Positions 5,022-35,505 of a stretch of DNA of 64,000 bases are shown in pieces. Every line of letters begins with the position of its first letter. Within the stretch, counting starts at the first letter, position 1. The position numbers were made by a program, and so were the translations under genes. The DNA is taken from the NCBI GenBank assembly GCA_030606335.1, contig JAUWGP010000003.1, forward strand, positions 26,065-90,064. Reading direction: 5' to 3'. This stretch comes from a candidate division WOR-3 bacterium. GTDB taxonomy: Bacteria; Hydrothermota; UBA3073. Below the pieces are notes generated by a model. It saw only the letters and a list, made by a program, of their open reading frames with translations. It was not told the DNA's origin and did no database searches.

Positions 5022-5412
5022 CAAAACTTAACCACAGAGAACACAGAGAAATTAAATCAAAATTACTAATTAGCAATGTGTAATTATAAATTTGTGAAAA
5101 ATCCTTTTTAAACTGCTAACTTTATATTTTACATTGTTTCTTTGTCTCTGTGACCTCTTATCCATCTCAAGATCTGTTCCGTGGGATCCGTATGGAATGA
5201 ATAGGTATAAGGTCACCTTCCTAATTATCTTACCTGCTAGCTGGCAGGTGGTAGACAGACAATTCCTGTGAAATCATATCCGTTAGCTAATGAACATTAT
5301 CTGGATTCACTCTGTTAAATAGTTATAAAATTGAGTAAAAGAAATCACTCCTGGTACTTTATTTAACAGGAGAACCACGGAGAATTAATTTTTCTCTGTG
5401 CTCTCTGTGGTT
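5022..5412. repeat. MITE-like element with CCACAGAGAACACAGAGAA terminal inverted repeats, copy 1
   Basis: ccacagagaacacagagaa at 5022-5040 and its inverse ttctctgtgctctctgtggtt at 5392-5412. The interior shares ctgtgaaatcatatccgttagctaatgaacattatctgga with copy 2. Confidence 0.55.
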
Positions 5413-7405: not shown

Positions 7406-7410
7406 ATCCT

Positions 7411-7560
7411 CTTCTCTCTTCCCCCTTCGCCTTATTTATCCCGTAGAATGCGTAGCTATTCTATCGGGACGCCCTACGCCCTATACTCCTCTCTTATCGC
7501 AACGAGGACGTTGCTCCTACCATAGATCGTCCGTCAAACGACGGACTCCTACTTTTAATT
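7411..7560. repeat. dispersed hairpin repeat ('cccgtagaatgcg...ctattctatcggg' module plus 'ctcctctcttatcg-hairpin-ctcctacc' module), copy 1
   Basis: About 75 nt are near-identical to 25140-25215, and 7478-7522 parallels 24999-25048 with a different but still self-complementary stem. Confidence 0.5.
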
Positions 7561-7599
7561 TACTATTTTCGATTGTCGATTTACGACTGCTTTCCAATT

Positions 7600-7990
7600 T
7601 GTTTTCCTCAATAGTCAGTTGTCATTAGTCATTCAATATCCCCAACATTAAACATTAAACATTTCACATACAACATGTATCATTTAACCAATTAACTTTT
7701 CAACTAATTAATTCGTGTGTTTATTGAGTTTATTGAGTTTGTTGTGTTCATTGAGTTTTTTTAGTTGATTTGGTTTATTTAGTTCGTTTAGTTGATTTAG
7801 TTGTTATATATAATAACCAATAACCATTAACTAATAACATTTAACATTAAACATTTAACATTTACTACTCCACTGATAACCGATAACCTAATTAACTAAT
7901 CAACCAATTAACCAATCAACTATTCCTTCTATCGCGACTGGGAAGTCGCTCCTACCTTATGCCATCTGATACATTTAACATTCAACATTT
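7600..7990. repeat. AT-rich low-complexity degenerate tandem repeats
   Basis: Runs of taaacatt/acatttaacatt, tattgagttt and ttagttgattt units. The ttgagtt motif recurs at 24700-24760. Confidence 0.5.
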
Positions 7991-8009
7991 CACATTCAAC
8001 ATTTTCCCT

Positions 8010-10229
8010 TTATCTCTCCTTCACCTCCAGTATGTACGGAATCATATATAGATACTCAGAGGAAAGGAGCGACCTAATAGACGATAAATAATTGTCTAAA
8101 TCAAATGGTGAACCCATCATGCCTAAACTAAATCCTGTCTTCGGTTTAGGATATATATCGACATCTCTTTCCTTGATATCCGCCATTCTCTGTGCCTCAT
8201 CCAGCGCATCGAGCAAGCCTCCTATTTCATCTATAAGCCCTAACTCCTTTGCCTTAATTCCACTCCATATCCTTCCCTCTCCAATGGAGTGTATATATTC
8301 TTTTGAAGTATCCCTCTCTGATGCAACAAGATTGATAAACCTATCATAATACCATTCAACAGATTTTTTGATTCTCTCACGTTCATATTCATCCCACTTA
8401 TGTATCTCAGACATTATATCTGCATGCTTACCCAATTTTACTATATCCCATGATATTCCAATTTTATCATAGAGCTCCTTAAAAATAAAGTTTATCCAGA
8501 AAACACCTATAGAGCCTGTAAGTGTAGTATTGTCTGAAAATATTTTATCCCCATATATGGATATCACATATCCGCCTGAACCTGCAACACCACCCATTGA
8601 GATTATAACAGGTTTATCCTTACTTATATCCCTTAATGCATTTGTGATTAGTTCTGATGCTAATGCATCTCCCCCACCAGAATTCACTCTCAAGACCACT
8701 GCCTTTACATCTTCATCATCCCTTATACCCTCAAGCGTCTTTACCATATCATCTGAGCCCATATAACCCTGTGATGACTTTCCCCGTATGATATTTCCAT
8801 CCGCAATAACAAGTGCTATCTTTTTCTTGCCTTTTCTCCATTCTCTTCCCACTATCTTTTCTTTTTTAAATTTTCTTGCTCCAGAACCAATAAGCGAATC
8901 CAAATCCTGTTTTTCCAGTGCGGCATCTACCAATCTCGCCTCTATTGCTCCATCACTATTAAAAAAAATGCCTTCATCAATGAGTTTTTGCAGGCTATCT
9001 GTTGACATACCCCTTGCCTCAGCGATAATCTCAATTGTAGGATAATAAACATCTTCAAGATACTCTATGATCTGAAGGCTGTCTTCCTCAGACATATCCT
9101 TTCTTTCAAATGTCTCAGGAGTAGATTTAAATCTACCTATTCCTTCAACCTGAGCCTCTACACCGATTTTTTCCATTGTTCCCTTAAAATATATCCTTCT
9201 GATCTGTATGCCAGGTATAACAACTTTTCCAACTGGATGTACAAATATTGAATCTGCTATAGATGAAAGGTATAAAGAGCCCAGACCATAAGATAGCGAG
9301 TATATGTATATTTTCTTACCACTTGCCTTAAATCGACTCAGTTCATTCCTTATCTCCTCCCATTTGCTCATATGCATCAAAGAACCTTTTAATTCCAAAA
9401 CCAGACCTTTACAGGCATCATCCTCTGAAAGTTCCTTTATCTGAGATAATAACTTATAAAAGGGTGCCTCGATCTTCTCAAACAAAAATTGACTTCTTTT
9501 AAGCTCGGGATAAGAACCTTCTATCTTTAGCTCTGCAAAGCAAGGTTTGGGTTTCATGAAGGTTGGATATTTCTCGTTTGATAGGACTAAACCTGCATTA
9601 TAAGTTTCGTTATCATCATTTTTACCATATCTGCCACCTAAACCGATATTACCAAAAGAGATGGAAATACCTGCATTCCATACATCCTCATTACCATAAC
9701 CCTCTATGAAAATTCCATCCACAGGTTCTACCTTCAATCCCACGAAATAATCCGAAGACTCATCCTCAACATTGTAGTTATAATCAAAACTTAGTGTTAT
9801 TCTATCAGTACCTGGTCTAATGCCTATACCAGACTTGAGTAAAAAATTGTCTCCTATCTTATCACCCACAAACCCAAGTGAAAGAAACCTGTGGGGTCTT
9901 ACCGTTGTTCCAATAAGGTAACCCTTTGTATCACCAAATTTGTATCCATAACCCATATGTAGCCAATTGCATATTCGAGCTCCACTTGATAGCACATAAC
10001 TTGTTTGTTCACCCCTTATAACTGTTCCAAAACCCAGATTACCAAGCGAAAGACCGATGGTATGTGAAGTATCTATATCACTAAAACTTCCAAGATAAGA
10101 TAATTCAAGCCCTGGAGATATTGCAATCCCTGACGGATTTACAAATGACGAAAACGACCTCTGAGTTGTTGATACACTTACATCAGCAAAAAGTGTAATC
10201 ACAACAGACATCAGGATGTTTACCAACAT
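8010..10229 (-). CDS. sppA: signal peptide peptidase SppA (67K type, two ClpP-like domains) fused to an N-terminal beta-rich (outer-membrane-barrel-like) domain
   Basis: C-terminal two thirds carry tandem S49 peptidase domains (VLRVNSGGGDALASE...GGVAGSGGYVIS, and a second, degenerate S49 repeat). The N-terminal ~240 aa have alternating hydrophobic and Gly/Ser/Asn-rich strands (GYGYKFG, ISISFGNIGLGGRYG). Confidence 0.8.
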   Translation of the reverse strand: MLVNILMSVVITLFADVSVSTTQRSFSSFVNPSGIAISPGLELSYLGSFSDIDTSHTIGLSLGNLGFGTVIRGEQTSYVLSSGARICNWLHMGYGYKFGDTKGYLIGTTVRPHRFLSLGFVGDKIGDNFLLKSGIGIRPGTDRITLSFDYNYNVEDESSDYFVGLKVEPVDGIFIEGYGNEDVWNAGISISFGNIGLGGRYGKNDDNETYNAGLVLSNEKYPTFMKPKPCFAELKIEGSYPELKRSQFLFEKIEAPFYKLLSQIKELSEDDACKGLVLELKGSLMHMSKWEEIRNELSRFKASGKKIYIYSLSYGLGSLYLSSIADSIFVHPVGKVVIPGIQIRRIYFKGTMEKIGVEAQVEGIGRFKSTPETFERKDMSEEDSLQIIEYLEDVYYPTIEIIAEARGMSTDSLQKLIDEGIFFNSDGAIEARLVDAALEKQDLDSLIGSGARKFKKEKIVGREWRKGKKKIALVIADGNIIRGKSSQGYMGSDDMVKTLEGIRDDEDVKAVVLRVNSGGGDALASELITNALRDISKDKPVIISMGGVAGSGGYVISIYGDKIFSDNTTLTGSIGVFWINFIFKELYDKIGISWDIVKLGKHADIMSEIHKWDEYERERIKKSVEWYYDRFINLVASERDTSKEYIHSIGEGRIWSGIKAKELGLIDEIGGLLDALDEAQRMADIKERDVDIYPKPKTGFSLGMMGSPFDLDNYLSSIRSLLSSEYLYMIPYILEVKER

Positions 10230-10268
10230 ATACCCTCCTTTGTTTATATAGTATTGTTAAAAATCTCA

Positions 10269-10558
10269 CCACAGAGAACACAGAGAATGTTAAGTATTAA
10301 GGAATTATAAAAGATTCTTCTCCCTCCCCCCTGTGGCCTCTCTATATAACCAATCCTTTGACATTTATACATAGAAATTTATAAATTAAAACAGGGATTT
10401 AAAGAGATTGAAAGAAATTCATTTTTTTAAAAATAATACATTCTCTTAAGTTCTCTTTCCATCCCTGTAAAATCATATCTGTTAGTTAACGGACATTGTC
10501 TGGAGAGCACAGAGAATTAAATTTACTCTGTGATCCGTCTGAGACGGACTGTGGTTTC
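10269..10558. repeat. MITE-like element with CCACAGAGAACACAGAGAA terminal inverted repeats, copy 2
   Basis: ccacagagaacacagagaa at 10269-10287 and the inverted copy ctctgtgatccgtctgagacggactgtggtttc at 10526-10558. The interior is shared with copy 1. Confidence 0.55.
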
Positions 10559-10784: not shown

Positions 10785-13133
10785 ATGGAAAAATTTAATA
10801 TGCATCTCAGCGAAGCAGATACAAGAGCAAAATTAATTGACCCCGCTCTCCATCTTTCTGGATGGACAGAAGACCTTGTAAGACGTGAAGAAACTGAGAG
10901 AGGTATTGATATTATAGATGGAAAACCACGCAGAAGAAGAAGGGGACGAATAGATTATATTCTACGCATTAAAGTTAATATTAACTCACAACCCATCGCA
11001 GTTGCTTTAATAGAAGCTAAGAAAAGCGATAACCCACCTGATAAAGGACTCGAACAAGCAAAGAAGTACGCAAGACTAAATAACGTACCTTTTGTATATT
11101 CTTCCAATGGTCATCTCTTTGTGGAATATGACAACTTTACAGGTAAAACTTCTCACCCGAATTCTTTAGAAAAGTTTCCTACACCATTTGAACTACGACA
11201 ACGCCATGAAAAAGGGATTGGTATTTCACTTGATAAAGAAAATGCAAAGCCACTTCTTATCCCGTATCCAGGAGGTGAAGCAAGCCGTCGTTATTATCAG
11301 GATGCAGCAATTCGTGCTACACTCGAGAAAATTATACAGGGAAAAAAACGGATGCTCCTATTCCTTGCTACAGGCTCCGGGAAAACCTTCATTGCGGTTC
11401 GTCTTTTGAAGAAGATTGCAGATGCTGGGCATTTACATCGTGCTTTATTTCTTTGTGACAGGGATGAACTCCGAAATCAGGGACTTTCAGCATATCAAAA
11501 TATTTTTGGTGCTGATGCTGCTCCTGTATCTACTGCAAATCCACAGAAAAACGCAAGAATTTTAATAGCAACATATCAAACTCTTAATGTAGCAGGCGAG
11601 AACGAAGATGCTAAATTCTTACTCGATAACTATCCTGAAAACTATTTCAGTCATATAATAATCGATGAATGCCATAGGAGTGCCTGGGGTAAATGGAGTA
11701 TCGTGCTAAAAAGAAATTCCGATGCAATTCAAATAGGACTTACAGCCACTCCACGTTACTGGGAGGGTGGTAGTAAGGAGGAAAAAAAAGTAGACAAAGA
11801 GATAACTGCTAACAACCTTCAATATTTTGGCGAACCAATTTACGAATACTCAATGTCACAAGGAATTGAAGATGGTTATCTCCCTGCTTGTGAGGTGATA
11901 AGACGCGATGTGAATCTCGATATAATAGGTGTCACACGAAATGATATTAAAGTATTGGGAGCAAGAGATGCTACAACAGGTAAGCAACTTACACCCGACG
12001 AAACCCGTGAGATATACGAAGCTACATCCTTTGAGGATATTATTCAATTGCCTGACAGAGTAGAAACAATGTGTAAAGACCTTTTTAAAATGTTCCTTCA
12101 AACGGGTGGACCTCACCAGAAGACAGTTATTTTTTGTGTGCGTGATACCCATGCAGATGCCATTGCCGCTGAAATAAATAATCTTTATGCTGAGTGGTGT
12201 GATAGAAATAAGCAAAAAAGATATGAGCCTTATGCATTCAAATGCACTGCTTCTGTGGGAGGAAGCAAATATATATCAGATTTGCGTAGCTTAGAGCGAA
12301 GTCATTTTATCGCTACTACAGTTGATTTAATAACTACAGGAGTTGATATACCAATATTACGTAATGTAGTATTCTTTAGATATATCCGTTCTCCAATATA
12401 CTTTCAACAAATGATGGGAAGGGGGTCAAGAATTCATCTTCCTACAAATAAATTGATGTTTCGGGTTTATGATTATACGGATGCTACAAGACTGTTAGGA
12501 GAAGAGTTTAAGTCAAAACCCTCACCCACACGAGAAAAAAAGGAAACAGAAGAGGGAGAAAAAGAAAGAATAATCCGAGTAGAAGGATTTGATGTTCGAA
12601 TTAATCCTGCCGGAACTTATATTGTCACTGAAAAAGAAGGAAGATTATCAATGGTTACAGTAGAGGAGTACAAGCAGACTATTGCAGAGCACTTGGTTGA
12701 AAATGTTAAAACATTAGACGATCTTCGTCATAGATGGATAAATCCTGAGGAACGTGGAGAGCTTATAGATTCCCTTCCCGAAGACGGACGAGGAATAAGA
12801 ATGCTGCAGGAACTTCTTAATCGAAAAGAATATGACCTTTATGATTTAATGGCAGAAATCGGGTTTGGTGTATCCCCTAAAAGTCGTGAGGAAAGAGTTG
12901 AAGCCCTTCAATATAAACATGCTGACTGGTTTAAACATTTACCCTCAGAAACAGCAAAAACATTGTTTGCACTTGCAAGGCAATTTGAAAGAGGCGGTAC
13001 TGAAGAATTAGAAAACCCGTATGTTTTCAATGCTCCTGATGTTGTTAAAGCGGGTGGACATCAAGCTTTAAAGGTGCTTGGTGGACCAAAAGACATTATT
13101 ATTGAGATGAAAAGGAGGTTATTTGCAGCCTGA
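10785..13133 (+). CDS. hsdR: Type I restriction enzyme R subunit (EcoEI-like size class)
   Basis: N-terminal HsdR signature MHLSEADTRAKLIDPALHLSGW; helicase motif I LATGSGKT and motif II IIIDECHRS; 782 aa. Confidence 0.9.
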   Translation: MEKFNMHLSEADTRAKLIDPALHLSGWTEDLVRREETERGIDIIDGKPRRRRRGRIDYILRIKVNINSQPIAVALIEAKKSDNPPDKGLEQAKKYARLNNVPFVYSSNGHLFVEYDNFTGKTSHPNSLEKFPTPFELRQRHEKGIGISLDKENAKPLLIPYPGGEASRRYYQDAAIRATLEKIIQGKKRMLLFLATGSGKTFIAVRLLKKIADAGHLHRALFLCDRDELRNQGLSAYQNIFGADAAPVSTANPQKNARILIATYQTLNVAGENEDAKFLLDNYPENYFSHIIIDECHRSAWGKWSIVLKRNSDAIQIGLTATPRYWEGGSKEEKKVDKEITANNLQYFGEPIYEYSMSQGIEDGYLPACEVIRRDVNLDIIGVTRNDIKVLGARDATTGKQLTPDETREIYEATSFEDIIQLPDRVETMCKDLFKMFLQTGGPHQKTVIFCVRDTHADAIAAEINNLYAEWCDRNKQKRYEPYAFKCTASVGGSKYISDLRSLERSHFIATTVDLITTGVDIPILRNVVFFRYIRSPIYFQQMMGRGSRIHLPTNKLMFRVYDYTDATRLLGEEFKSKPSPTREKKETEEGEKERIIRVEGFDVRINPAGTYIVTEKEGRLSMVTVEEYKQTIAEHLVENVKTLDDLRHRWINPEERGELIDSLPEDGRGIRMLQELLNRKEYDLYDLMAEIGFGVSPKSREERVEALQYKHADWFKHLPSETAKTLFALARQFERGGTEELENPYVFNAPDVVKAGGHQALKVLGGPKDIIIEMKRRLFAA

Positions 13134-14034
13134 AAAGGAGATATTTGATTTTCTTGTTGAAAATGCAATATACCCTATGATTAGTAAGAAGGGTAAGGTC
13201 TTCTTTAAATATCCGAAGAAAGGAATGTTAACTGAGGCTAAAGCAAGAGAAATTATTGAACAATTGGATATTAAGACCAGAAATGACTGCAAAAAATTAA
13301 GGGAAAAAATCAGAAACCTGAGATCTGCATTCAGAGAAAATCGTCCTATAAGCAAATGGATTAAAGAGGAAAGACCAAGGGAGATGCTGGTTAAATACGG
13401 TCCCGAGTTCCTCCCTTTATCAAAACTTCTTGCAATAATATTAAGGATAGGAAGGGAAGGAATAAGTGCAGAAGAACTATCAAAAAGGTTATTGAATAAG
13501 TTTGGTGCATTAAGGAAAATAGATACTGCAACAATTTCTGAGATACGTGAGATAGAAGGAATAGGTCTTGCAAAAGCAGCACAAATAAAAGCTGCACTTG
13601 AACTTGGTAAAAGGCTATATAAAGAAACTGCTGTAAGGAAGAGAAAGATAACAAAACCAGATGAACTTATTGAGTATGTAGCAGAATATTACGGTCCTTA
13701 TCTAAGGGACTCTGTTAAAGAGTTTTTTTATGTCATACTTCTGGATATAAAAAATAAACCTATTGATAACGTGGAAATAAGTAAGGGTAGTATAAATGCA
13801 AGTGTGGTAGATCCAAAGGATATTGTAAAAGAAGCAACTATACGGTCAGCCTCGTCAATAATTTTGGTTCATAATCATCCATCAGGTGAGACAGACCCAT
13901 CTGAAGAGGATAAAAGGTTAACAAAATCAATTATAGATGCCTGTGAACTCATTGATATAAAGGTATTAGACCATATAATCATTGGAAAAAATCAAGAAGA
14001 CTATTTTAGTTTCGTAAAGAACGGATTGATATAA
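13123..14034 (+). CDS. radC: RadC-like JAB/MPN-domain protein with an N-terminal extension
   Basis: ERPREMLVKYGPEFLPLSKLLAIILRIGREG, HhH motif IEGIGLAKAAQI, JAMM motif LVHNHPSGETDPSEEDKRLT. TTG start with AAGGAGG 5 nt upstream; overlaps the hsdR stop by 11 nt. Confidence 0.8.
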   Translation: MQPEKEIFDFLVENAIYPMISKKGKVFFKYPKKGMLTEAKAREIIEQLDIKTRNDCKKLREKIRNLRSAFRENRPISKWIKEERPREMLVKYGPEFLPLSKLLAIILRIGREGISAEELSKRLLNKFGALRKIDTATISEIREIEGIGLAKAAQIKAALELGKRLYKETAVRKRKITKPDELIEYVAEYYGPYLRDSVKEFFYVILLDIKNKPIDNVEISKGSINASVVDPKDIVKEATIRSASSIILVHNHPSGETDPSEEDKRLTKSIIDACELIDIKVLDHIIIGKNQEDYFSFVKNGLI

Positions 14035-14050
14035 TAGAGATTATTTTATT

Positions 14051-15526
14051 ATGAAAAAATATAAAATATTCGTAAGTGGCGTTCAGAGAGAGCTCAAAGA
14101 GGAGCGGTTTGCAGTAAAAGAAATCATCACTCTGAACACTTTTTTAAAGAAATACTTTGATGTCTTTCTTTTTGAGGACCTGCCAGCCAAAAGCAAGCCA
14201 GCAGAAAAGGTCTACCTTGGAAAAGTCTCGGAGAGTGATATCCTGCTATTGTTATTGGGAAAGGAGTATGGACAACCCAGTCCTGATGGTCTTTCAGCTA
14301 CAGAAAGGGAATTTAGAAAGGCTGTGGAACGGAATTTGAAAATCCTGGTTTTTTTGAGAGGAGAAGATGACTCTACCAGAGACAGGCGGGTTAGAAATCT
14401 TATACGGGAGATAAAAAGACCGGGCAGTGGATATACTTATGATGAATTTAATGGTACGTCCGATTTAAAAGAATGTGTTTTCAATAGTCTTGTAGAACTC
14501 CTGGAGGATGATGGTATTCTTGCCAGGCTCCCCTTCGATTCTACAATTTGTGAAGAAGCAACTTATGAAGACATAAATGAAGAACTGGTAGAGAACTTCC
14601 TGAAGTATAGAGCAATAAAACTAAAAGTGGAAGTTCCTGAAATACCCATAAGAGATTTCTTAGTAAAGACTATTAAAGCGGTCCGGGAATTAGACGGAAT
14701 CTTTAAGCTAACTAATGCAGCGATTCTTTTCTTTTGTGATTATCCTCAAGAATTCATTTCTCAAAGCAGTATAAAGATAGCAAGATACAGGGGGAATTCA
14801 AGGATAGAATTTATTGACTCACAGGAACTTACTGGTCCATTCTATAAAATAATTGATGATTTAGAGATATTCTTTAAAAGAAATACCCGATTAGCCAGCA
14901 AGATTGTGGAGTTTAAGAGAGTGGATATTCCCGAGTATCCCTTTGAGGCAATAAGAGAAGGAATAGTCAATGCAATGGCTCACAGAGATTATCTCCGCAT
15001 TGGTTCTAATATTCAGATGGATATCTTTAACGATAGAATAGAGGTCACCAGCCCCGGAGGACTTCTTCCAGGGTTGGACATTAAAAATCTGGAAGGGGTT
15101 CATGAGACGAGAAACAAAAGGATTTGCAAAATCTTTCACGAAACGAAAGATATGGAAAGATATGGGACTGGTATTACTAAAATGAAGAATTGGATGACAG
15201 AACACGGTTTGAAGCCGCCAGTAATAACTCAACCAGGTGATTTCTTCAGAATTAATTTTTATGGTCCGGGTGATAAGATATTAGATTTAGTTCCCAATAT
15301 ACCCGAAGAAAGACAAACAGATTTGAAAAAATTGGGCTTAAATAACAGACAAATAGAAGCATTAAGATTGATGGTAAATGAAGGGAAAGCCTTAACAAAC
15401 AGAAAATACAGAGAATTGTTTAACGTTAGCAATCAAACATTCGTTAGAGATATGCGACTACTGTCCAAGTTGGAATTTGTCACTTCCGAAGGTAAAGGTC
15501 GGTCTTTGCAATACAAAGCAAAATAA
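14051..15526 (+). CDS. DUF4062 / AlbA_2 (divergent AAA) / HATPase_c_4 protein with C-terminal HTH (Schlafen-like 'RecG-related' regulator family)
   Basis: N-terminus KIFVSGVQRELKEERFAVKEII...ILLLLLGKEYG matches the DUF4062 pattern. The middle has AIREGIVNAMAHRDYLRIGSNIQMDIFNDRIEVTSPGGLLPG (HATPase_c_4). The C-terminus has an HTH (NNRQIEALRLMVNEGKALTNRKYRELFNVSNQTFVRDMRLL). Confidence 0.6.
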   Translation: MKKYKIFVSGVQRELKEERFAVKEIITLNTFLKKYFDVFLFEDLPAKSKPAEKVYLGKVSESDILLLLLGKEYGQPSPDGLSATEREFRKAVERNLKILVFLRGEDDSTRDRRVRNLIREIKRPGSGYTYDEFNGTSDLKECVFNSLVELLEDDGILARLPFDSTICEEATYEDINEELVENFLKYRAIKLKVEVPEIPIRDFLVKTIKAVRELDGIFKLTNAAILFFCDYPQEFISQSSIKIARYRGNSRIEFIDSQELTGPFYKIIDDLEIFFKRNTRLASKIVEFKRVDIPEYPFEAIREGIVNAMAHRDYLRIGSNIQMDIFNDRIEVTSPGGLLPGLDIKNLEGVHETRNKRICKIFHETKDMERYGTGITKMKNWMTEHGLKPPVITQPGDFFRINFYGPGDKILDLVPNIPEERQTDLKKLGLNNRQIEALRLMVNEGKALTNRKYRELFNVSNQTFVRDMRLLSKLEFVTSEGKGRSLQYKAK

Positions 15527-15527
15527 C

Positions 15528-15700
15528 AATGTCACGAAACAAGTCCAAATGTCACGAGAATGTCATGAAAAAGCATGTCACGAAAAGTGAGAGAATGTCA
15601 CGGAATGCGTCACGAAAAAAGTATCCACAAAGGTGGAAAATTAATTTAAGAAATGTCCCTAAAAATTAAAAATGTCCTTAATAATGTCCGAAATCAGTAA
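15528..15700. repeat. array of about 9 degenerate AATGTCAC / AATGTCC motifs
   Basis: caATGTCACgaaa, aaATGTCACgag, aATGTCAtgaaa, gcATGTCACgaaa, gaATGTCACgga, gCGTCACgaaa, then aATGTCCct, aATGTCCtta, aATGTCCgaaa, irregularly spaced 12-21 nt apart. Confidence 0.5.
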
Positions 15701-15767
15701 TCCTAAGATAGAACTTCCAGCAGGCTGGCGATGGGTGAGACTGGGCAAGAAGATAGAAATTTATTGA
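15684..15767 (+). pseudogene. hsdS: hsdS N-terminal remnant (27 codons)
   Basis: Encodes MSEISNPKIELPAGWRWVRLGKKIEIY*, matching the N-terminus of the full hsdS (ILPPDWRWVKLGEVCEF); ctggcgatgggtga is shared at the nucleotide level. Confidence 0.5.
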
Positions 15768-15774
15768 TTTATAT

Positions 15775-16458
15775 GTGGAGGTGTCGTTAATGCTTAATCT
15801 ACAGAGAGGAATTCCAATCGAAGATGGAGATTTGTTTATCTTAGATACAAATCCATTCAGATTTTTGTATCTGGCAGCGGAAAGCCTAATCAAAGATGCA
15901 GAGCAAGCTGCAACCAAAAATAAGCATCGGGTTGAAATTAATCATTCTATTGGAGCACTTGTGGTGCTTCTTCTATCTACCGAAGCACTCATAAACAGAG
16001 TGTATGAGTGTTTCCTTAGAAGTAAATTCCCCAGACAGATATACGAAGAGATTATGGGTAAATGGTCTCTCACAATGAAATGGTATTTTGCTCCTCTGAT
16101 TTATAAATCTGGTGGTAACAATAAAACCTTTGATGTTAAAAAAGAACCCTGGCAATCTTTTTCTGAACTGAAAAAGATCAGGGATTATTTTGCTCACCCA
16201 AAGCCAGCCCAATTTCCCTTTACAGTATTAGATGCTAAAAAAAAGATCTTGGATGTTAATGAGGGCGTTATACCAAGATGGCCCCAAACAACAATTCCTA
16301 AAGACTTGAACCATTTTCGTTGGAAGGATGCTCAAACGGTTTTGGAAATTATTAATAAAATGATTGATAAATTAGACTCCTTCATGGGGGGAACAATCAA
16401 AAAGGACGATTGGTATTTAATAGAACAAATGAGTAAATATGAAAAAGCAGCTGAATAA
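15775..16458 (+). CDS. hypothetical protein embedded in the Type I RM locus
   Basis: About 222-227 aa. GGAGG at 15777-15781 precedes the ATG at 15790; the track ORF starts at GTG 15775. No recognisable motif. The 3' end overlaps the hsdS start by 20 nt. Confidence 0.5.
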   Translation: MEVSLMLNLQRGIPIEDGDLFILDTNPFRFLYLAAESLIKDAEQAATKNKHRVEINHSIGALVVLLLSTEALINRVYECFLRSKFPRQIYEEIMGKWSLTMKWYFAPLIYKSGGNNKTFDVKKEPWQSFSELKKIRDYFAHPKPAQFPFTVLDAKKKILDVNEGVIPRWPQTTIPKDLNHFRWKDAQTVLEIINKMIDKLDSFMGGTIKKDDWYLIEQMSKYEKAAE

Positions 16459-17581
16459 AGAAATACTTCCACCCGACTGGCGATGGGTGAAGTTGGGGGA
16501 AGTATGTGAGTTTGCGTATGGTTCAGGATTACCGGTACGAGATAGATTGAAGGGTCTCATTCCTGTATTTGGCTCAAACGGTGTTATTGGTTACCATAAC
16601 ATGGCAATTACTCAAAGTCCTACAATTATAATTGGTCGCAAGGGTTCAATTGGTCAAGTGAATTCTTCAGAATCTCCATGTTGGCCAATTGATACAACTT
16701 ACTACATTGACGAATCCAAAACCTCCTGTTATCTACATTGGCTGTACTGGTTACTTAAGTACCTGAGACTAGACGAACTTAATAAAGCGACTGGGGTGCC
16801 AGGTTTGAATCGTAATGACGCCTATAGTCAAGTTATCCCCCTCCCTCCTCTTTCTGAGCAGAAGCGCATCGCTGCAAAAATTAAGGAGTTAATGCAGGAG
16901 GTAGAACATGCCCGAACAGCCTGCGAAAAGCAATTAGAGGCAGCAAAAGCCCTTCCCTCCGCATATCTGCGAGAGGTCTTTAAAAGCGAAGATGCAAAGA
17001 AGTGGGAGAGTAAGAGGTTGGGAGAGGTTTGTGAGACTACAAGCGGAGGCACTCCATATAGAGGGAATAAAGAGTATTTTGACGGGGATATTCCCTGGGT
17101 GAAATCGGGAGAATTGGAAGACAATTACATCTATGACACGGAAGAGAAAATAACAGAATTAGGTCTTAAAAATTCTAGTGCTAAAATTTTGCCTATGGGA
17201 ACATTGTTAATTGCAATGTATGGAGCAACTGTTGGAAAGTTGGGGGTCTTGAATATTTCCGCTACTACTAATCAAGCTATTTGTGCCATTATTCCAAATT
17301 CCAAAGCCTCGACCAATTTTCTCTTTTTCTTTTTCATGCATTTTAGAAGAGACCTGGTCAATAAATCTTATGGAGGTGCTCAGCCAAATATCAGTCAAGA
17401 ACTAATAAAAGAAACACACATTCCTTTTCCGTCTATAAAAACCCAGCATCGTATTGCCGCTGAACTCAAAGAAAAAAAAGCAGAGGTAGATAAACTTCAC
17501 TCATCCATTGAAAGACAATTTGAAGCAATAAACGCCTTGCCACAGGCAATTTTAAGGAAGGCATTCATAGGGAAGTTGTGA
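16439..17581 (+). CDS. hsdS: Type I restriction-modification specificity subunit (two target-recognition domains)
   Basis: Two half-repeats, each starting with a conserved motif (LPPDWRWVKLGEVCEF / ESKRLGEVCETTSGGTP), each followed by a conserved coiled-coil spacer (LPPLSEQKRIAAKI..., FPSIKTQHRIAAEL...). Confidence 0.9.
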   Translation: MKKQLNKEILPPDWRWVKLGEVCEFAYGSGLPVRDRLKGLIPVFGSNGVIGYHNMAITQSPTIIIGRKGSIGQVNSSESPCWPIDTTYYIDESKTSCYLHWLYWLLKYLRLDELNKATGVPGLNRNDAYSQVIPLPPLSEQKRIAAKIKELMQEVEHARTACEKQLEAAKALPSAYLREVFKSEDAKKWESKRLGEVCETTSGGTPYRGNKEYFDGDIPWVKSGELEDNYIYDTEEKITELGLKNSSAKILPMGTLLIAMYGATVGKLGVLNISATTNQAICAIIPNSKASTNFLFFFFMHFRRDLVNKSYGGAQPNISQELIKETHIPFPSIKTQHRIAAELKEKKAEVDKLHSSIERQFEAINALPQAILRKAFIGKL

Positions 17582-17634
17582 TGGAAATTAAACCTACTAC
17601 ATTTATCTCTGTGATATCAACAAAAATATAAGAA

Positions 17635-18702
17635 ATGAATCTAAATAAACGGTCAAATAGCTTTTCCCAAGAAAATATTACTCGCATTACAGAATTCTTT
17701 AAAAATCAGCAACTTCCTGAACCTCATTTACATCTTTTTAAGAGTGTGGTTTGGAAGGGATATCGTTGGAGAGCAATTTGGAACACTCTCCATTATCGTC
17801 CACTTCATGAAACATTTCATGAATTTATCATATATATTTTGAAAGCAACTTTTGGTGAAAAATGGCGCAAAGAGCAGATGAATTTGTCTGAAGAAGAAAG
17901 ACATATTCTTATTCGCTGGGTTAAATCTTATGGTGAATGGAAAAAAGCTACTCATAATGATGAAAAGAAAGAAGGCGAGTATATCTATGGTGCTATCCCA
18001 AGTGGTGAAGTTATGGCACTCCATTCATTTGCTTATGATATATATTGCCTCCAAGTAGTCAATAAGTTACCAAACTTCTTAGTAAATAGACTGAAGAATA
18101 AAAATGAATTCCAAGGTGCAAGATATGAAATAGCTGTGGCTGCTATTATCGCTCGAGCGGGCTTTGCTATAACCTTCCTCGATGACAAGGTTAAAAGTCA
18201 AAAGCATTGTGAATTCGTCGCCAAGAATAAATATTCTGGGTTACAAATTGGAGTTGAAGCTAAAAGTCGAAGAAGGAAAGGTGTACTCCATGAAAAAGGA
18301 AATTTGAATTACTCTTCAGTTGTAAGAGGAGACATTGAGAACCTTTTTGAAAAGGCTCTTACTCAGAGGCCCAAGAACATGCCATATTTTATTTTCATCG
18401 ACTTGAATGTAATGCCTACCCCAGACCCAGAAATTCCCCCTGACAAAAAACCATGGTTTAAGGATATAAAATTGCTATTAGATAGATATGGGATACCTTC
18501 TAAAGAAAATCCAGATCCGTTTAATGCATTGGTGTTGACTAATTTTTCTTATTATTATTTGGGAAACTTACCTATTACTCATTTGGGAGAATACGGTCTA
18601 ATCATCTCTGAAATTCCAGAATACCCGTGCAAAGATATGCAGGCTATAAGTGAAATATGGGAAAGTTTAGGACGGTATTCTCATATTCCGAAAGATGTAT
18701 AA
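17635..18702 (+). CDS. hypothetical protein between hsdS and hsdM; possible PD-(D/E)xK-like nuclease core (inference)
   Basis: 355 aa with no P-loop. The segment ARYEIAVAAIIARAGFAITFLDDKVKSQKHCEFVAKNKYSGLQIGVEAKSRRRK fits a helix-E, strand-D, strand-ExK arrangement. Confidence 0.45.
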   Translation: MNLNKRSNSFSQENITRITEFFKNQQLPEPHLHLFKSVVWKGYRWRAIWNTLHYRPLHETFHEFIIYILKATFGEKWRKEQMNLSEEERHILIRWVKSYGEWKKATHNDEKKEGEYIYGAIPSGEVMALHSFAYDIYCLQVVNKLPNFLVNRLKNKNEFQGARYEIAVAAIIARAGFAITFLDDKVKSQKHCEFVAKNKYSGLQIGVEAKSRRRKGVLHEKGNLNYSSVVRGDIENLFEKALTQRPKNMPYFIFIDLNVMPTPDPEIPPDKKPWFKDIKLLLDRYGIPSKENPDPFNALVLTNFSYYYLGNLPITHLGEYGLIISEIPEYPCKDMQAISEIWESLGRYSHIPKDV

Positions 18703-18725
18703 CCTTATACCCTAAATTATCTTAT

Positions 18726-20231
18726 ATGCGAAAAAATTCTCACAAAATAACCACACCACAATCTCTGAATGCCTATATCAAGGGTATCTGTGATATTATG
18801 CGGAGGTCGGGAAGAGCTGGGGCTCTCCAGTATGTGCCTGAACTTACCTGGATGCTCTTCCTCCGTATTCTTGATGAAAAAGAGGAGATAGAAGTAGAAT
18901 ATACTAAAGCATTAGGTAGAGAATTTATTCCTTCACTCCAATATCCATATCGCTGGCGAGATTGGGCTGCTCCTGATGGAGAAAAAAGAAAGGAATTACA
19001 AGAGGGAACATTTGGAAGATTTATGAGCTTCGTCGATGGAGACCTGCTCCCTACCCTCAAAAAATTAAAGGATAAACCTGGTGCAACTCCTCGTCAGAAG
19101 GTTGTCAGTCAAGTCTTCTCCTCTTTTGAAAAAACGGGTATTGATACCGAACGCAATCTTTTAGATATACTTGATAAAATTCATGAACTCTCCTTGGAGC
19201 AAGTTGAAGAAACCCACATGTTCACACTCTCCCAGGTCTATGAGGGACTGATACAGAAAATGGGTGAGAAAAACAACGACGGTGGACAGTTTTTCACACC
19301 AAGAGAGGTTATTCGTGTTATGGTTAAAGTGATTGACCCGAAGATTGGAGAAACCGTTTATGACCCCTGCTGTGGAACGGGTGGGTTTCTGGCTCAGGCA
19401 TATCTACATATGAATAAAAATGCAACAATAGCAGATGACATTGAAACCCTCAAGATTAGAACCTTCTACGGTAGAGAGAAAGAAAATCTTGTTTACCCCA
19501 TTGTCCTTGCAAATCTCGTGCTTCATGAGATAGATGAACCACATATATGGCATGGCAACACGCTAACAGGTCATGAGGTTTATGGTGGACTTTTCCAAAG
19601 TGCACCCGTCCTCTTTGATGTAGTCCTCACTAATCCTCCCTTTGGTGGTAAAGAGGGAAAAGATGCTCGGACTCATTTTGCCTATAAAACCAGCTCTACA
19701 CAGGTATTGTTCTTGCAACATGTCATTGATAACCTTAAAAATAGTGGCAGGTGTGGAATCGTAATGGATGAAGGTGTTTTATTCCGCACAAATGAGAAAG
19801 CCTTTGTCCAGACTAAACGCAAACTCTTGAGTGAGTGCAACCTCTATTGTATTGTAAGTCTTCCTCCCAAGGTATTCCTTAATGCTGGTGCAGCAAGTAA
19901 AACCAATCTACTTTTTTTCACTAAAGGTGAACAAACTAAAGAAATATGGTATTATGACCTATCTGATTTAAATGTAACAAAAAGGCAGCCCTTAACTATG
20001 CATCACTTTGAGGAGTTCTTTAAATTATTACCAGAAAAAAAAGAAAGTGAGCATTCCTGGAAGGTTCCAATAGAAGAAATAGAAGAGAAAAATTACGACA
20101 TAAAAGCAGTAAATCCAAACAGAAAAATCGAGGAAGACACAAGAAGCCCGCAAGAGCTATTAGCAATTATTGAGTCCCAGCAAAAAGAAATCACAAACGC
20201 ATTATCAAAATTGAAAGATAAAGGCTTGTGA
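18726..20231 (+). CDS. hsdM: Type I restriction-modification N6-adenine DNA methyltransferase subunit
   Basis: HsdM N-domain (GALQYVPELTWMLFLRILDEKEE), GTGGFL SAM-binding motif, NPPFGG catalytic motif. The start is taken at the ATG at 18726, after the stop of the upstream gene. Confidence 0.9.
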   Translation: MRKNSHKITTPQSLNAYIKGICDIMRRSGRAGALQYVPELTWMLFLRILDEKEEIEVEYTKALGREFIPSLQYPYRWRDWAAPDGEKRKELQEGTFGRFMSFVDGDLLPTLKKLKDKPGATPRQKVVSQVFSSFEKTGIDTERNLLDILDKIHELSLEQVEETHMFTLSQVYEGLIQKMGEKNNDGGQFFTPREVIRVMVKVIDPKIGETVYDPCCGTGGFLAQAYLHMNKNATIADDIETLKIRTFYGREKENLVYPIVLANLVLHEIDEPHIWHGNTLTGHEVYGGLFQSAPVLFDVVLTNPPFGGKEGKDARTHFAYKTSSTQVLFLQHVIDNLKNSGRCGIVMDEGVLFRTNEKAFVQTKRKLLSECNLYCIVSLPPKVFLNAGAASKTNLLFFTKGEQTKEIWYYDLSDLNVTKRQPLTMHHFEEFFKLLPEKKESEHSWKVPIEEIEEKNYDIKAVNPNRKIEEDTRSPQELLAIIESQQKEITNALSKLKDKGL

Positions 20232-20239
20232 GATATAAT

Positions 20240-20451
20240 ATGATAAAATCTAACCCTTTCACTCCAAAGTCTGGTTTGGAGCAGAAAATCTTTTTCAATA
20301 GGGAAGATGAGATAAAATTGCCGATATTGAGATAAAAAGTTTGAATGTTTATCTTCGTAGGTTGGTAGAGAAAGAAATCTTAATTGGTGTTAGGCGTGGC
20401 GAATATAAATTAAAAGACATTCTATTGTGTGAATACCTGAGAAGAAAATAA
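20240..20451 (+). pseudogene. degraded remnant of an AAA-type (PF01637-like) ATPase gene
   Basis: Frame A encodes MIKSNPFTPKSGLEQKIFFNREDEIKLPILR*, the characteristic NPF.P...FxxREDEI N-terminus of 'archaeal-type' ATPases. A second frame at 20353-20451 encodes LRRLVEKEILIGVRRGEYKLKDILLCEYLRRK*, a wHTH-like C-terminus. The body of the gene is missing. Confidence 0.3.
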
Positions 20452-20812
20452 CAAAAATTACAAATCAAGCCTAATGTTGTAATTTCTGTAATTTTGGATA
20501 TAGAATTCTTAGGGATCGTAGGGTCAAGTCTCAACATAAGACATTTTTATTGGCGAGGGAAGTTCGGTGGCGGGGTACTCCAACGAGAGCTGTAATTTGA
20601 GTGCATTACCTTGGTAATGCAAGTGGGCGGTAGCAAGCTATTGCAATTCTTAATCTCTAAGATAGATTTTATTTAATAAAAAGGAAATATTAATAGGGAT
20701 TACAATTAGAAAGATAAACTTCTTTTGGTAAGACTAATGGGGGTCAGTTCTTGGCACACTCCAAAGAAGTTTTAATAGCACTGTAGAAATTAATCAGTAT
20801 TAGGATATAGAT

Positions 20813-21859
20813 ATGTTTAAACCAAAATTCACAATCACCAATAAAATAAACAATTTCCTTCTTGAAATTGAGAGGGCAAGAGGATTTTTGGAGGCGGCAA
20901 AGTTAAAGGAGGCATGGATAAAGGATATGCAAAGTGAAGCACTTATCCTTGAAGCGCACCACTCTACACATATTGAAGGAACTCAACTGACCTTATCCCA
21001 GGCTCAAAGAATTCTTACCGGCAAATCTGTAAAGGGCATTAGGAAAGATGATCGTCAAGAACTCCTGAACTATAAAGAGGCAACTGATTTTGTCTCCGAA
21101 TACCTGGGGAAGAAATTAGAAATCACGGAGGATTTAATTAAGCAGATACACAAGATTTTAGTTAAAGATGTCAGGGGTGGAACCCTTGAGCCAGGAAGAT
21201 ATAGAAAAGTTCAGAATTATGTAGTCAACTCCTTGACAAGAGCAATAATTTATATTCCGCCCCCTCCAGAGGAAGTTCCTAAACTAATGAAAGAATTCGT
21301 TGAATGGTTAAACGTAAAAAAGAAGATATCACCTGTGCTCATGGCAGGGATCAGTCAATATCAGTTTGTTGACATTCATCCCTTCTTAGATGGAAACGGA
21401 AGGACTGCTCGTGTTTTATGTACGCTCATTCTTTATCAGAATGAATATGATTTTAAAAGGCTTTTTTCATTGTCCGAATATTACGACAAAAAACGCCGGA
21501 GGTACTACGACGCCATTCAATCAGTGAGAGAGAATAATATAGATATGACAGAATGGCTCGAATATTTTACAGAAGGACTGAAAAATCAATTGATAGAAGT
21601 AAAAACAAAGGGAGAAAAGGCAATTAAAAAGGAAGTTCTCATTGAGAAGGCTAAAAGATTTAACTTAAACGAGCGTCAACAGAAAATTTTATTACATTTA
21701 TTGGAGCAAAAGCGGATTTCGGTTGAGGAAATCAGACAGAAATATAATTTGGTTAGAAGAACGATTCAACGTGATTTCTCAAAATTGGTTGAGTTAGGTC
21801 TAATAAAGGAAATAGCAAAAAGCAAGACAGACCCTACAAGGTATTATGAATTACTGTGA
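20813..21859 (+). CDS. fic: Fic/DOC family protein (AMPylator-type) with C-terminal winged-helix domain
   Basis: Canonical Fic motif HPFLDGNGRTARVL; 348 aa. Confidence 0.9.
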   Translation: MFKPKFTITNKINNFLLEIERARGFLEAAKLKEAWIKDMQSEALILEAHHSTHIEGTQLTLSQAQRILTGKSVKGIRKDDRQELLNYKEATDFVSEYLGKKLEITEDLIKQIHKILVKDVRGGTLEPGRYRKVQNYVVNSLTRAIIYIPPPPEEVPKLMKEFVEWLNVKKKISPVLMAGISQYQFVDIHPFLDGNGRTARVLCTLILYQNEYDFKRLFSLSEYYDKKRRRYYDAIQSVRENNIDMTEWLEYFTEGLKNQLIEVKTKGEKAIKKEVLIEKAKRFNLNERQQKILLHLLEQKRISVEEIRQKYNLVRRTIQRDFSKLVELGLIKEIAKSKTDPTRYYELL

Positions 21860-32906: not shown

Positions 32907-33204
32907 CCACAGAGAGCACAGAGATTAAAGATTATTTTCTCTGTGTTCCCTAAAGCACTATGTTTTTCTAATTCATATAATAGAATAAAAGATAATAATT
33001 CCTTTAATCTAATAGTGTAGGTGCTTTTTAAAAGAAAAACAAGTTTATTCGAAGAATCCTCCTGAAAAGTTCTCAAATCTTTCACCCTCTTATTTTGAAA
33101 TAGGAGAGCACACAGAGGAACCAAAGAGTTCTTATTTCTTTTTCCCTGCTCGCTCTATGTCTCGCTAAGGCGGGACGACCTCTGTGGTTACACTTCTGTG
33201 GTTT
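32907..33204. repeat. MITE-like element with CCACAGAGAGCACAGAGA-type ends, copy 3
   Basis: ccacagagagcacagaga at 32907-32924, ggagagcacacagagg at 33103-33118, and inverted cctctgtggttacacttctgtggttt at 33179-33204. Confidence 0.5.
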
Positions 33205-33381: not shown

Positions 33382-35505
33382 ATGGAAACAATTATATCCA
33401 TATTAATCCTTACTACACTTATTTCTAATAATGGAAACATCGAAAATTTCCTGAACTCAAGCCATATATATAGTATGTTCCACAATGAGAACTTGATATA
33501 TTGTGCAACAAGTGGTGGTGCAGCGATTTTTGATACAAGTACAGGTAGTTTTGATAGAATTTTCACAGGCAAAGGACTTGCTAAAAATGATGTAAGAGAT
33601 ATTATTTTAGATAAATATGGCAATATTTGGTTTCTATGCTATGGTAAAGGTATATCGATTTTATCACCTAATAATATATGGAAAGAAGTAAGCGGCGAAT
33701 GGTATGAGATTCCTGAGTCGGTATTTTGTATAAATATCCTTTCTGATACTGTCCTTGTTGGAACTCACGATGGAATTAGATTATGGGACATAAAAAATAC
33801 GAACCCAATGGAAAAGACAGACAAAATGGAAAAAATCTCAACATATCCAGGAAATTTTGTAAAAAATATAATTTTTTTAAATGACACCTTATATATATGT
33901 ACTGATGAGGGAATCGGAAAGGTCACCCTGTCAAACATCGAGCATTTCTCAGAATGGAATACTATTACTGAAATTGGTAACGTTAATTCTGTTGAGATGT
34001 TAAGAGATACGTTATGGATAGCAACATCAGGTGGTATCTCATACATTAATGACGGAGATTATCATTATGTTGCCTCATATGACTCAAGAGATTTTACTGT
34101 TTGGGGTGGAAAATTATGGGTTGCGACATACAACGGACTCCGCCGATGGAATGGTACAGGATTCTCATTTACCCCAATCATAAAGGAATTAAGATGTTTT
34201 CTTCCTCTGTCCAAGCTCTGGATAGGTTCCTGGGGAGAGGGTATCTTAGAGTTTAATTACGATACGGTAATAACTCATATTCCTGAAGGACCAGGAGATA
34301 ATAGGATTGGTGATATAGCCGTTGATGAAGCTGGAAACCTCTGGAGTATTAATGGAGGATGTATGGTTTCTAAATACAATGTAGAGGAAGGTATATGGGA
34401 AATTTTCAATCTAAATAACGAGTGGAATGTACAAGGAGGCGGTTTAAGTGCGCTGGCAGTTGCAAAAGATAGTAAAGTATGGTTGGGTGTTTGGAACTGG
34501 TCTAACGAGGGACCTGCTCTTATACGACTATATCCTGATGGCACCCTCGACACCCTCTTCCGTCTTCAGGGTAACAATGTAATAAGTGATATTGCAATTA
34601 GTGATAGTAATGATGTATGGGTTTCAACATGGAAAATAGAGGGGGAAATTTCACGCCTTCGAAGATATAGGCGGGGTTCTATTGATTCTATTGATATTTT
34701 TACCTTTCCACCTGGAATTAACCGTATTACATTTGATAACCAGTTAAATACATGGGTTGGGTGTACCTATGAACTAAGTGGAGGTGTTTATAGAATAATA
34801 AATCAATCTGAAGCAGAAGAGCTCTTATGTCCCGAAATCCAGGGAGAGGAAATTCATTCTCTTGCATTTGACTTTGAGGGGAGAATATGGATTGGAACAC
34901 CAGCAGGGACATATGTGATCAGAGACGGAATCATAGAATATTTACTAACGAGCGGGGATACAGATGTGGTAGGAGACGTAGCACAAGACATCATATGTGA
35001 CATCCATGGCAACATCTGGCTATTACTCGAACCAACTCCTGGTGTTACTGAAGGGGGCTTAACAAAAGTCACAAGTAACTTTGAGTTCTCATCCATTACA
35101 CATGCAGATGGACTTCTACCTGTGAGTATAGACTACAGCAAAGGAAAAGACTATCTTGCCTATGACGCAACAAGAGGCTGGTTATGGATAGCAACCAGTG
35201 AGGGTATTTCAAGATACGACACTGGGATTACCCCCCCCTCCACAATCTTCTCGGTACTGGTCTATCCAAATCCCTTTTTAGAAGATGTACATACCTTCAT
35301 TAAGTTCTATTCTGATGATTTAATGGGGGGGAGCATAAGAATATACTCTCTTAGCGGTCAATGTATAAAAACATTCTCTAACATAAACGGAGATACACTA
35401 AAATGGATAAACCCTGTTCTTGCAAGCGGGGTTTACATATATACTGCATATGCTGGTTCTGAGAATAAAGATAAAACGATAGGAAAATTTTCAGTTATTC
35501 GTTAA
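33382..35505 (+). CDS. secreted beta-propeller (two-component-regulator-propeller, Reg_prop-type repeats) protein with T9SS C-terminal sorting domain
   Basis: Repeated W/G-rich blades (NIWFLCYGKGISIL, LWIATSGGISYI, LWVATYNGLRRW, RIWIGTPAGTYVI, WLWIATSEGISRYD). C-terminus VLVYPNPF...GVYIYTAYAGSENKDKTIGKFSVIR is the por-secretion-tail pattern. Confidence 0.7.
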   Translation: METIISILILTTLISNNGNIENFLNSSHIYSMFHNENLIYCATSGGAAIFDTSTGSFDRIFTGKGLAKNDVRDIILDKYGNIWFLCYGKGISILSPNNIWKEVSGEWYEIPESVFCINILSDTVLVGTHDGIRLWDIKNTNPMEKTDKMEKISTYPGNFVKNIIFLNDTLYICTDEGIGKVTLSNIEHFSEWNTITEIGNVNSVEMLRDTLWIATSGGISYINDGDYHYVASYDSRDFTVWGGKLWVATYNGLRRWNGTGFSFTPIIKELRCFLPLSKLWIGSWGEGILEFNYDTVITHIPEGPGDNRIGDIAVDEAGNLWSINGGCMVSKYNVEEGIWEIFNLNNEWNVQGGGLSALAVAKDSKVWLGVWNWSNEGPALIRLYPDGTLDTLFRLQGNNVISDIAISDSNDVWVSTWKIEGEISRLRRYRRGSIDSIDIFTFPPGINRITFDNQLNTWVGCTYELSGGVYRIINQSEAEELLCPEIQGEEIHSLAFDFEGRIWIGTPAGTYVIRDGIIEYLLTSGDTDVVGDVAQDIICDIHGNIWLLLEPTPGVTEGGLTKVTSNFEFSSITHADGLLPVSIDYSKGKDYLAYDATRGWLWIATSEGISRYDTGITPPSTIFSVLVYPNPFLEDVHTFIKFYSDDLMGGSIRIYSLSGQCIKTFSNINGDTLKWINPVLASGVYIYTAYAGSENKDKTIGKFSVIR

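Follow-up and report, generated by a model that had tools for sequence, protein, structure and literature searches.

Signal peptide peptidase SppA is a textbook inner-membrane enzyme, which in Escherichia coli is held in that membrane by one N-terminal transmembrane (TM) segment (PMC9360617; PMC13236525). In an SppA encoded by a candidate division WOR-3 bacterium (Hydrothermota; GenBank assembly GCA_030606335.1), predicted structure and sequence comparison indicate that this helix has very probably given way to an N-terminal β-barrel with the fold of the outer-membrane protein FadL. The gene lies at 8010-10229 on the minus strand of a 64,000-nucleotide stretch of contig JAUWGP010000003.1 (positions 26,065 to 90,064), referred to here as the window, and all coordinates are those of the window unless another locus is named. 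The fusion of SppA to an N-terminal outer-membrane barrel in place of the TM anchor had been proposed in an initial annotation, and structure prediction, fold search, conservation and topology now agree on it. The best overall explanation, which we regard as probable on the strength of the models and alignments, is an SppA-type S49 peptidase of the 67K class with a Ser/Lys dyad, whose tether has been exchanged from the inner to the outer membrane. Across several diderm phyla, most of them uncultured, a large and old branch of SppA appears to have its place in the outer membrane by way of such a barrel.

As read from the sequence, the gene is a single intact open reading frame (ORF) of 739 amino acids with an ATG start, upstream of which the window sequence contains no in-frame start codon. 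The Shine-Dalgarno sequence AAGGAGGG (10233-10240, minus strand) is located 3 nt 5' of this ATG, and GC content and skew run unbroken across the gene. An assembly error or frameshift that merged a separate barrel gene with a truncated sppA was considered merely because the window stems from a metagenome-assembled genome, and nothing was found in its support. The identical 739-aa protein is present on independent contigs in NCBI, ENA and Logan, hence the ORF is real and not an assembly artefact; in addition, more than 100 diverged homologues from independent assemblies have the same continuous architecture and the same junction. On these grounds the artefact was dropped as effectively refuted, its probability being negligible. 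In NCBI, the identical protein carries the name 'signal peptide peptidase SppA [candidate division WOR-3 bacterium]'.

The protease part, a two-domain 67K-type SppA, comprises residues 230-700. It is matched twice by the Pfam family Peptidase_S49 (E 9.5e-61) and scores 333.2 bits, above the cutoff of 311.45, with the NCBIfam model TIGR00705 (SppA_67K), which aligns protein residues 253-701 with model positions 74-544 of 590 and leaves unmatched positions 1-73, where the usual TM anchor resides. Its first S49 domain, of ClpP fold, extends over residues 230-465 (8835-9542, minus strand) and carries the general base K368 (codon 9126-9128), and the second, at residues 466-697 (8139-8834, minus strand), provides the nucleophile S551 (codon 8577-8579), which lies within GVAGSGGY, and scores 244.7 bits with TIGR00706. 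A phmmer alignment to the E. coli enzyme (PDB 3BEZ/3BF0, with a chain numbering offset of 25) pairs K368 with K209 and S551 with S409, and neither residue varies among 101 aligned full-length barrel-SppA relatives. The full-length AlphaFold2 model (pLDDT 84.8, pTM 0.80) matches E. coli SppA (3bf0/3bez) in Foldseek with TM-scores of 0.83-0.85. Like E. coli SppA (protease IV), the WOR-3 protein thus has tandem S49 domains, the Ser/Lys dyad and an N-terminal tether, with ~29-30% identity and a TM-score of 0.84 over ~480 residues, whereas a signal peptide and a 14-stranded barrel stand where E. coli SppA has its TM segment. Among the hallmarks of a 67K SppA, the family cutoff is exceeded and the dyad is present, but the single N-terminal TM helix is absent. 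By every sequence criterion the protein is apparently a catalytically competent SppA. The C-terminal tail (residues 698-739; 8013-8138, minus strand) is modelled with a pLDDT below 50 and contains the conserved motif ...SSEYLYMIPY..., which in the form ...LLSSEYLYxMPY... is kept in barrel-type and classical SppAs alike. For Bacillus subtilis SppA, a C-terminus that is self-cleaved and occupies the active site has been described, and the title of PDB entry 4kwb speaks of C-termini bound within the active sites; by analogy the tail of the WOR-3 protein may be self-processed or may bind the active site.

The segment in front of the protease is predicted to fold as a 14-stranded transmembrane β-barrel of the FadL/PorV/BamG type with minimal loops (residues 40-217; 9579-10112, minus strand). 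With an alignment of 21 sequences, AlphaFold2 placed all 14 strands within these residues (mean pLDDT 87.3, pTM 0.79). Mean Kyte-Doolittle hydropathy alternates between the strand faces (+1.57 versus -0.83), one being hydrophobic and the other polar or glycine-rich, and glycine makes up 17% of the barrel, so that the amphipathic β character that had been ascribed to the N-terminus in the initial annotation exceeds chance; the two motifs quoted there, GYGYKFG and ISISFGNIGLGGRYG, were found at residues 92-98 and 187-201, respectively. The size and class given to the barrel fared less well: a barrel is present in the region of about 240 residues that had been named, but it ends at residue 217, and the fold is not that of a small outer-membrane barrel of the 8-10-stranded OmpA/OmpX type. 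A fold search with the model returned the FadL homologue of Pseudomonas aeruginosa (3DWO, score 24.8), E. coli FadL (1T16, 24.1), PorV (6H3I chain F, 22.9), Flavobacterium johnsoniae BamG (9N2D chain B, 20.8), TodX (3BRZ, 20.7) and the FadL-like subunit of the Bacteroides thetaiotaomicron BAM complex (18.7). The aligned length is 209-216 residues at 2.0-2.4 Å in these cases, and all other listed matches are membrane barrels as well.

At the level of sequence, the barrel stands apart from these proteins. No match to Toluene_X, the Pfam family of FadL and TodX (PF03349), was found among the 21 plus 35 family members searched against Pfam, and neither Pfam nor NCBIfam holds a model that covers the barrel. 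The matches that Pfam does give on the barrel are sub-threshold and all belong to outer-membrane barrel families (Porin_4, TraF_2, OMP_b-brl, UPF0164 and PorP_SprF). Profile searches of the PDB gave PorV at E 0.24 and, with a deeper barrel profile, no match, hence no link by sequence to the solved FadL, PorV or BamG structures. Compared with FadL and TodX, the WOR-3 barrel shares the 14 antiparallel transmembrane strands but differs in the lack of a significant Pfam or PDB sequence match, in having about half the size and almost no extracellular loops, and in being followed by a C-terminal protease. A hidden Markov model (HMM) of the barrel, run on a small local set, weakly detects a protein at another locus, L073 (E 3e-5), on which Toluene_X comes near its cutoff (28.5 versus 29.7 bits). 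Two Poribacteria loci each contain a standalone barrel that the HMM detects as well (hhalign probability 92.7%, E 4e-7). In both of these loci, a standalone gene for a barrel of ~315 aa lies 1-2.5 kb 3' of the barrel-SppA gene (L002, ~11219-12262; L029, ~12615-13580); the copy in L002 matches PorP_SprF and UPF0164 weakly, and the one in L029 matched no Pfam family. The likeness to the standalone barrels and to the L073 protein resides mostly in a shared N-terminal '...A..DD..A...NPAGL' segment. We conclude that the barrel domain belongs to the FadL structural superfamily as a divergent, minimal member with a sequence family of its own.

Upstream of the barrel, the leader MLVNILMSVVITLFA (residues 1-15; 10185-10229, minus strand) would be a short hydrophobic Sec-type signal peptide with a putative cleavage site at its end, and residues 2-14 appear as a low-confidence helix both in the barrel model and in the full-length model. 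This leader and those of the close relatives P0004-P0013 are very short and devoid of basic residues (MLVNILMSVVITLFA/D, MLGYVLLL..LLFDG/S), and canonical cleavable Sec signal peptides are found at this position in more distant members of the family. The leader is followed by a pre-barrel segment of 24 residues (residues 16-39; 10113-10184, minus strand), which is modelled with helices at 24-30 and 34-37 and contains the motif NPSG (residues 31-34; 10128-10139, minus strand; family consensus NPAG). Across 101 fusion proteins, N31 and P32 never vary and A33 reaches 91% conservation. In FadL, an NPA motif in the hatch is conserved and functionally important. The long N-terminal tail or hatch of FadL threads its barrel (PMC12611786), and residues 16-39 may be the equivalent of such a hatch or N-tail. 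At the other end, the last strand is joined to the protease by the 12-residue linker NEKYPTFMKPKP (residues 218-229; 9543-9578, minus strand), which is confidently modelled (the 10-residue blocks over residues 211-230 average pLDDT 89 and 83). Barrel and protease meet at the point where the classical enzyme receives its TM helix, with residue 255 of the query aligned to E. coli residue ~95.

The orientation of the barrel can be read from the conservation pattern, for which an alignment of 101 sequences was mapped onto the 13 connections between the strands. The even-numbered connections have fixed lengths (1, 4, 2, 6, 2 and 3 residues) and a mean information of 1.1-2.7 bits, and they hold the most conserved positions of the barrel, namely R111-P112, S117, G119, R138-P139 and G172. 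The odd-numbered connections have 0.5-1.2 bits and take nearly all of the insertions, which reach 24-28 residues in other members; in the WOR-3 barrel, the loops that face outward are 2-4 residues long. Short, conserved periplasmic turns and variable outer loops are the standard pattern of outer-membrane proteins. As the number of strands is even and the conserved turns are on the side of the chain ends, the last strand should exit into the periplasm. With the 12-residue linker that follows, the protease would be periplasmic as well and lie up against the outer membrane's inner face. From the model and the alignment, this location directly beneath the outer membrane is considered likely.

The architecture had been called unusual, which holds with respect to the literature, since full-text searches found no description of a fusion of SppA, or of S49 peptidases, to an outer-membrane barrel, and recent work on SppA in Bacteroidota deals with the TM-helix form only (PMC13236525). 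It does not hold for sequence data. An exhaustive search of 1.84 billion cluster representatives (50% identity) with the barrel profile yielded 1,851 proteins at E<=1e-3, of which 863 remain at E<=1e-10. The best 150 matches mostly have 720-860 aa, which is the size of a barrel-SppA fusion. Among the 22 shorter sequences inspected, most reach the beginning of the SppA domain before the contig end truncates them. A search with the N-terminus only, based on a word index, had returned two fragments and suggested a rare family, an impression that the profile search overturned. At a strict threshold of 1e-35, a search with the deeper barrel profile returned six fragments, none from a cultured organism. 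Named sources among the matches listed, which come from a scan for the SppA-domain pattern with the full-length alignment and represent a sample rather than a census, are WOR-3, Cloacimonadota, Ignavibacteria, Zixibacteria, Calditrichota and Poribacteria, together with a few metagenome-assembled genomes (MAGs) labelled as Bacteroidota and two labelled as cyanobacterial or Sericytochromatia. All of the fusion proteins are annotated plainly as SppA. The barrel-SppA architecture is hence common in databases, yet apparently unrecognised.

Of 208 full-length proteins compared, 159 contain the barrel and the remaining 49 are of the classical form. In a neighbour-joining tree built from the protease domains only, the 49 classical forms group together in a single cluster from which all of the sampled barrel forms are absent. 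The tree is rough, its nodes lack support values, and relatives of the query are over-represented in the classical set; read in this way, it suggests that the split between barrel and classical forms is old and was inherited vertically, rather than having arisen by repeated recent fusions.

Taken as a sequence of events, the proposed mechanism would begin with Sec-dependent export of the protein and removal of its signal peptide. Residues 40-217 would then be inserted into the outer membrane as a barrel in a BAM-dependent manner, the NP(A)-bearing N-terminal segment packing with the barrel as the hatch does in FadL. With the last strand exiting to the periplasm, as the conservation pattern suggests, the linker would hold the two-domain protease under the outer membrane, where it presumably forms a tetramer as E. 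coli SppA does, its active sites being made up of K368 and S551. There it may degrade hydrophobic periplasmic peptides, such as released signal peptides and similar fragments, with the chemistry of classical SppA and probably also its substrate class. The active sites of E. coli SppA are far from the membrane and its substrates are signal peptides already released into the periplasm (PMC9360617), so that a tether in the outer membrane need not change the substrate pool. By this analogy, a retained peptide-clearing function, i.e., the same enzyme at the other membrane, is the most economical proposal, and we give it somewhat less than an even chance. As the outward-facing loops comprise only 2-4 residues, the barrel is most likely an anchor and not a transporter.

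Several points weigh against an SppA that has simply changed membranes. The leader of the WOR-3 clade is atypical, as it has only 15 residues and lacks both a basic n-region and a clear AxA site; little or no variation is seen in the NPA motif and the periplasmic turns, which exceeds what a passive anchor would seem to need; in its host genomes, the barrel form may either replace or add to the classical inner-membrane SppA; and the placement in the outer membrane across the family is deduced from sequence and predicted structure. The leader, which stands at the position of the classical TM helix and has neither a basic n-region nor a canonical AxA site, also fits a reading in which this hydrophobic stretch is an uncleaved signal-anchor in the inner membrane and the β-rich region a soluble periplasmic insertion. 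An α-helical TM or periplasmic N-terminus common to SppA homologues, which the initial annotation had set against a barrel, was not found, and a barrel is predicted instead; the classical SppAs in the same alignment (P0029, P0054 and P0073; 583-612 aa) have one hydrophobic helix at this place and no barrel. We regard an inner-membrane location with a soluble insertion as highly improbable.

The strong conservation of the NPA motif and the turns would be better accommodated if the barrel were more than an anchor, and here two proposals have to be weighed. It might act as a docking module that binds an outer-membrane machine, as PorV does with the T9SS (type IX secretion system) translocon or BamG with BamA, with the SppA chamber beneath it degrading stalled, misassembled or cleaved client segments. 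The extracellular loops of PorV, the outer-membrane shuttle of the T9SS, are thought to bind the C-terminal domain of the cargo. In BamG, a BAM subunit of the FCB type, strands 3-7 extend into an extracellular pillar that binds BamH, in addition to the contact with BamA (PMC12611786). The WOR-3 barrel has neither the loops of PorV nor the extended strands and loops by which BamG holds BamH, its likeness in sequence to PorV is not significant, and unlike barrel-SppA neither PorV nor BamG is fused to an enzyme. Moreover, the window and four homologous loci show no conserved neighbourhood with, or other genomic link to, BAM or T9SS genes, and the fusion is present in Poribacteria, for which we know of no T9SS. 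Docking by analogy with PorV or BamG is hence unlikely, barrel-SppA should not be filed under either name, and the connection to a T9SS-type envelope that had been suggested for this gene is unsupported, despite the T9SS sorting domains encoded by the organism.

Slightly less likely still is a channel-coupled protease, in which transport of the FadL type has been kept and hydrophobic peptides from outside or from the bilayer pass through the lumen or a lateral gate into the protease for uptake, detoxification of membrane-active peptides or disposal; an opening in the side of the barrel wall is a trait of the FadL family. Those folds that come closest (FadL, TodX and the P. aeruginosa FadL homologue) belong to true transporters, the NPA motif is invariant, the 12-residue linker sets the protease at the periplasmic mouth of the barrel, and SppA contributes to antimicrobial-peptide resistance in B. 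subtilis (PMC7568657). However, with outward loops of 2-4 residues the barrel lacks the extracellular binding groove of FadL, the barrel part has ~200 residues compared with 345-444 in the matched structures, and the known cargo of FadL consists of small hydrophobic molecules rather than peptides. In its most elaborate form, four FadL-type barrels would sit above a tetrameric SppA chamber, and hydrophobic peptides, such as membrane-active antimicrobial peptides or cleaved sorting signals stuck in the outer membrane, would pass a lumen or lateral gate into the proteolytic bowl, an arrangement that we consider equally doubtful. Were it true, it would provide the first example of a self-compartmentalised protease linked covalently to an outer-membrane channel, and 'signal peptide peptidase' would be the wrong name for a whole branch of S49.

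For the tether exchange, the nearest parallels in layout are not homologous to barrel-SppA. OmpA has an N-terminal 8-stranded barrel and a C-terminal periplasmic domain that binds peptidoglycan and is not an enzyme, and in the protease pair NlpI-Prc, which is tethered to the outer membrane, Prc is held non-covalently through a lipoprotein. Both resemble barrel-SppA in that a periplasmic functional domain is held at the inner face of the outer membrane. If the location of barrel-SppA is confirmed, the annotation of these proteins as signal peptide peptidases should be reviewed. The barrel would be the third of FadL type to be reused as a structural module in FCB-related lineages, after PorV and BamG, and would define a domain family so far lacking a Pfam or NCBIfam model. 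It would also raise the question of what these organisms need to degrade at the outer membrane's inner face.

In the window, sppA is flanked by uvrB on one side and by a type I restriction-modification island on the other. No conserved neighbours of barrel-SppA were found in the window and four homologous loci of other lineages, all of which differ, and functional inference from an operon was dropped for this reason; sppA behaves as a solitary housekeeping gene, whose context gives no functional clue. On its 3' side, a 600-nt AT-rich non-coding gap (7406-8009) contains about eleven tandem 9-nt units of TGAGTTTAT at 7707-7805, several repeats of 7 or 14 nt of the ACATTTAACATT type and one terminator-like hairpin at 7529-7546. 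The gap has no ORF of at least 60 aa, and Rfam gave no match over the whole window, the gap included. On the 5' side, one copy of an intergenic motif of ~20 nt, ACCACAGAGARCACAGAGA, lies 38-58 nt upstream of the sppA start codon. Four near-exact copies are present in the window, at 5033-5048 (+), 5394-5409 (-), 10270-10285 (+) and 32908-32923 (+), with a half-copy at 10503-10517, and two copies are followed by an inverted partner. Allowing up to 3 mismatches, 6 matches were counted versus 0.54 expected. The motif may act as a regulatory site or represent a REP-like element or hairpin.

The restriction-modification island occupies 10785-21859 on the plus strand, with HsdR at 10785-13133, HsdS at 16439-17581 and HsdM at 18657-20231. 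It is interrupted by four genes, one RadC-like with a JAB domain, one with DUF4062 and HATPase_c_4, and two without a Pfam match, and it is closed by a Fic/DOC-HTH gene (20813-21859), so that the whole resembles a defence island. Farther along, a gene at 33382-35505 (+) encodes a protein of 707 aa with β-propeller repeats (Reg_prop, SGL) and a C-terminal, sub-threshold match to Por_Secre_tail (24.4 bits versus a cutoff of 27), which is probably a second T9SS substrate beside the product of the gene at 49593-53987 (-). The latter has 1,464 aa, with Peptidase_C25 (gingipain/PorU-type), FG-GAP repeats, FlgD_ig and Por_Secre_tail above the Pfam cutoff, and is either a T9SS cargo or a PorU-like sortase. 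As the window encodes cargo of the T9SS type, the organism has an outer membrane and probably a T9SS.

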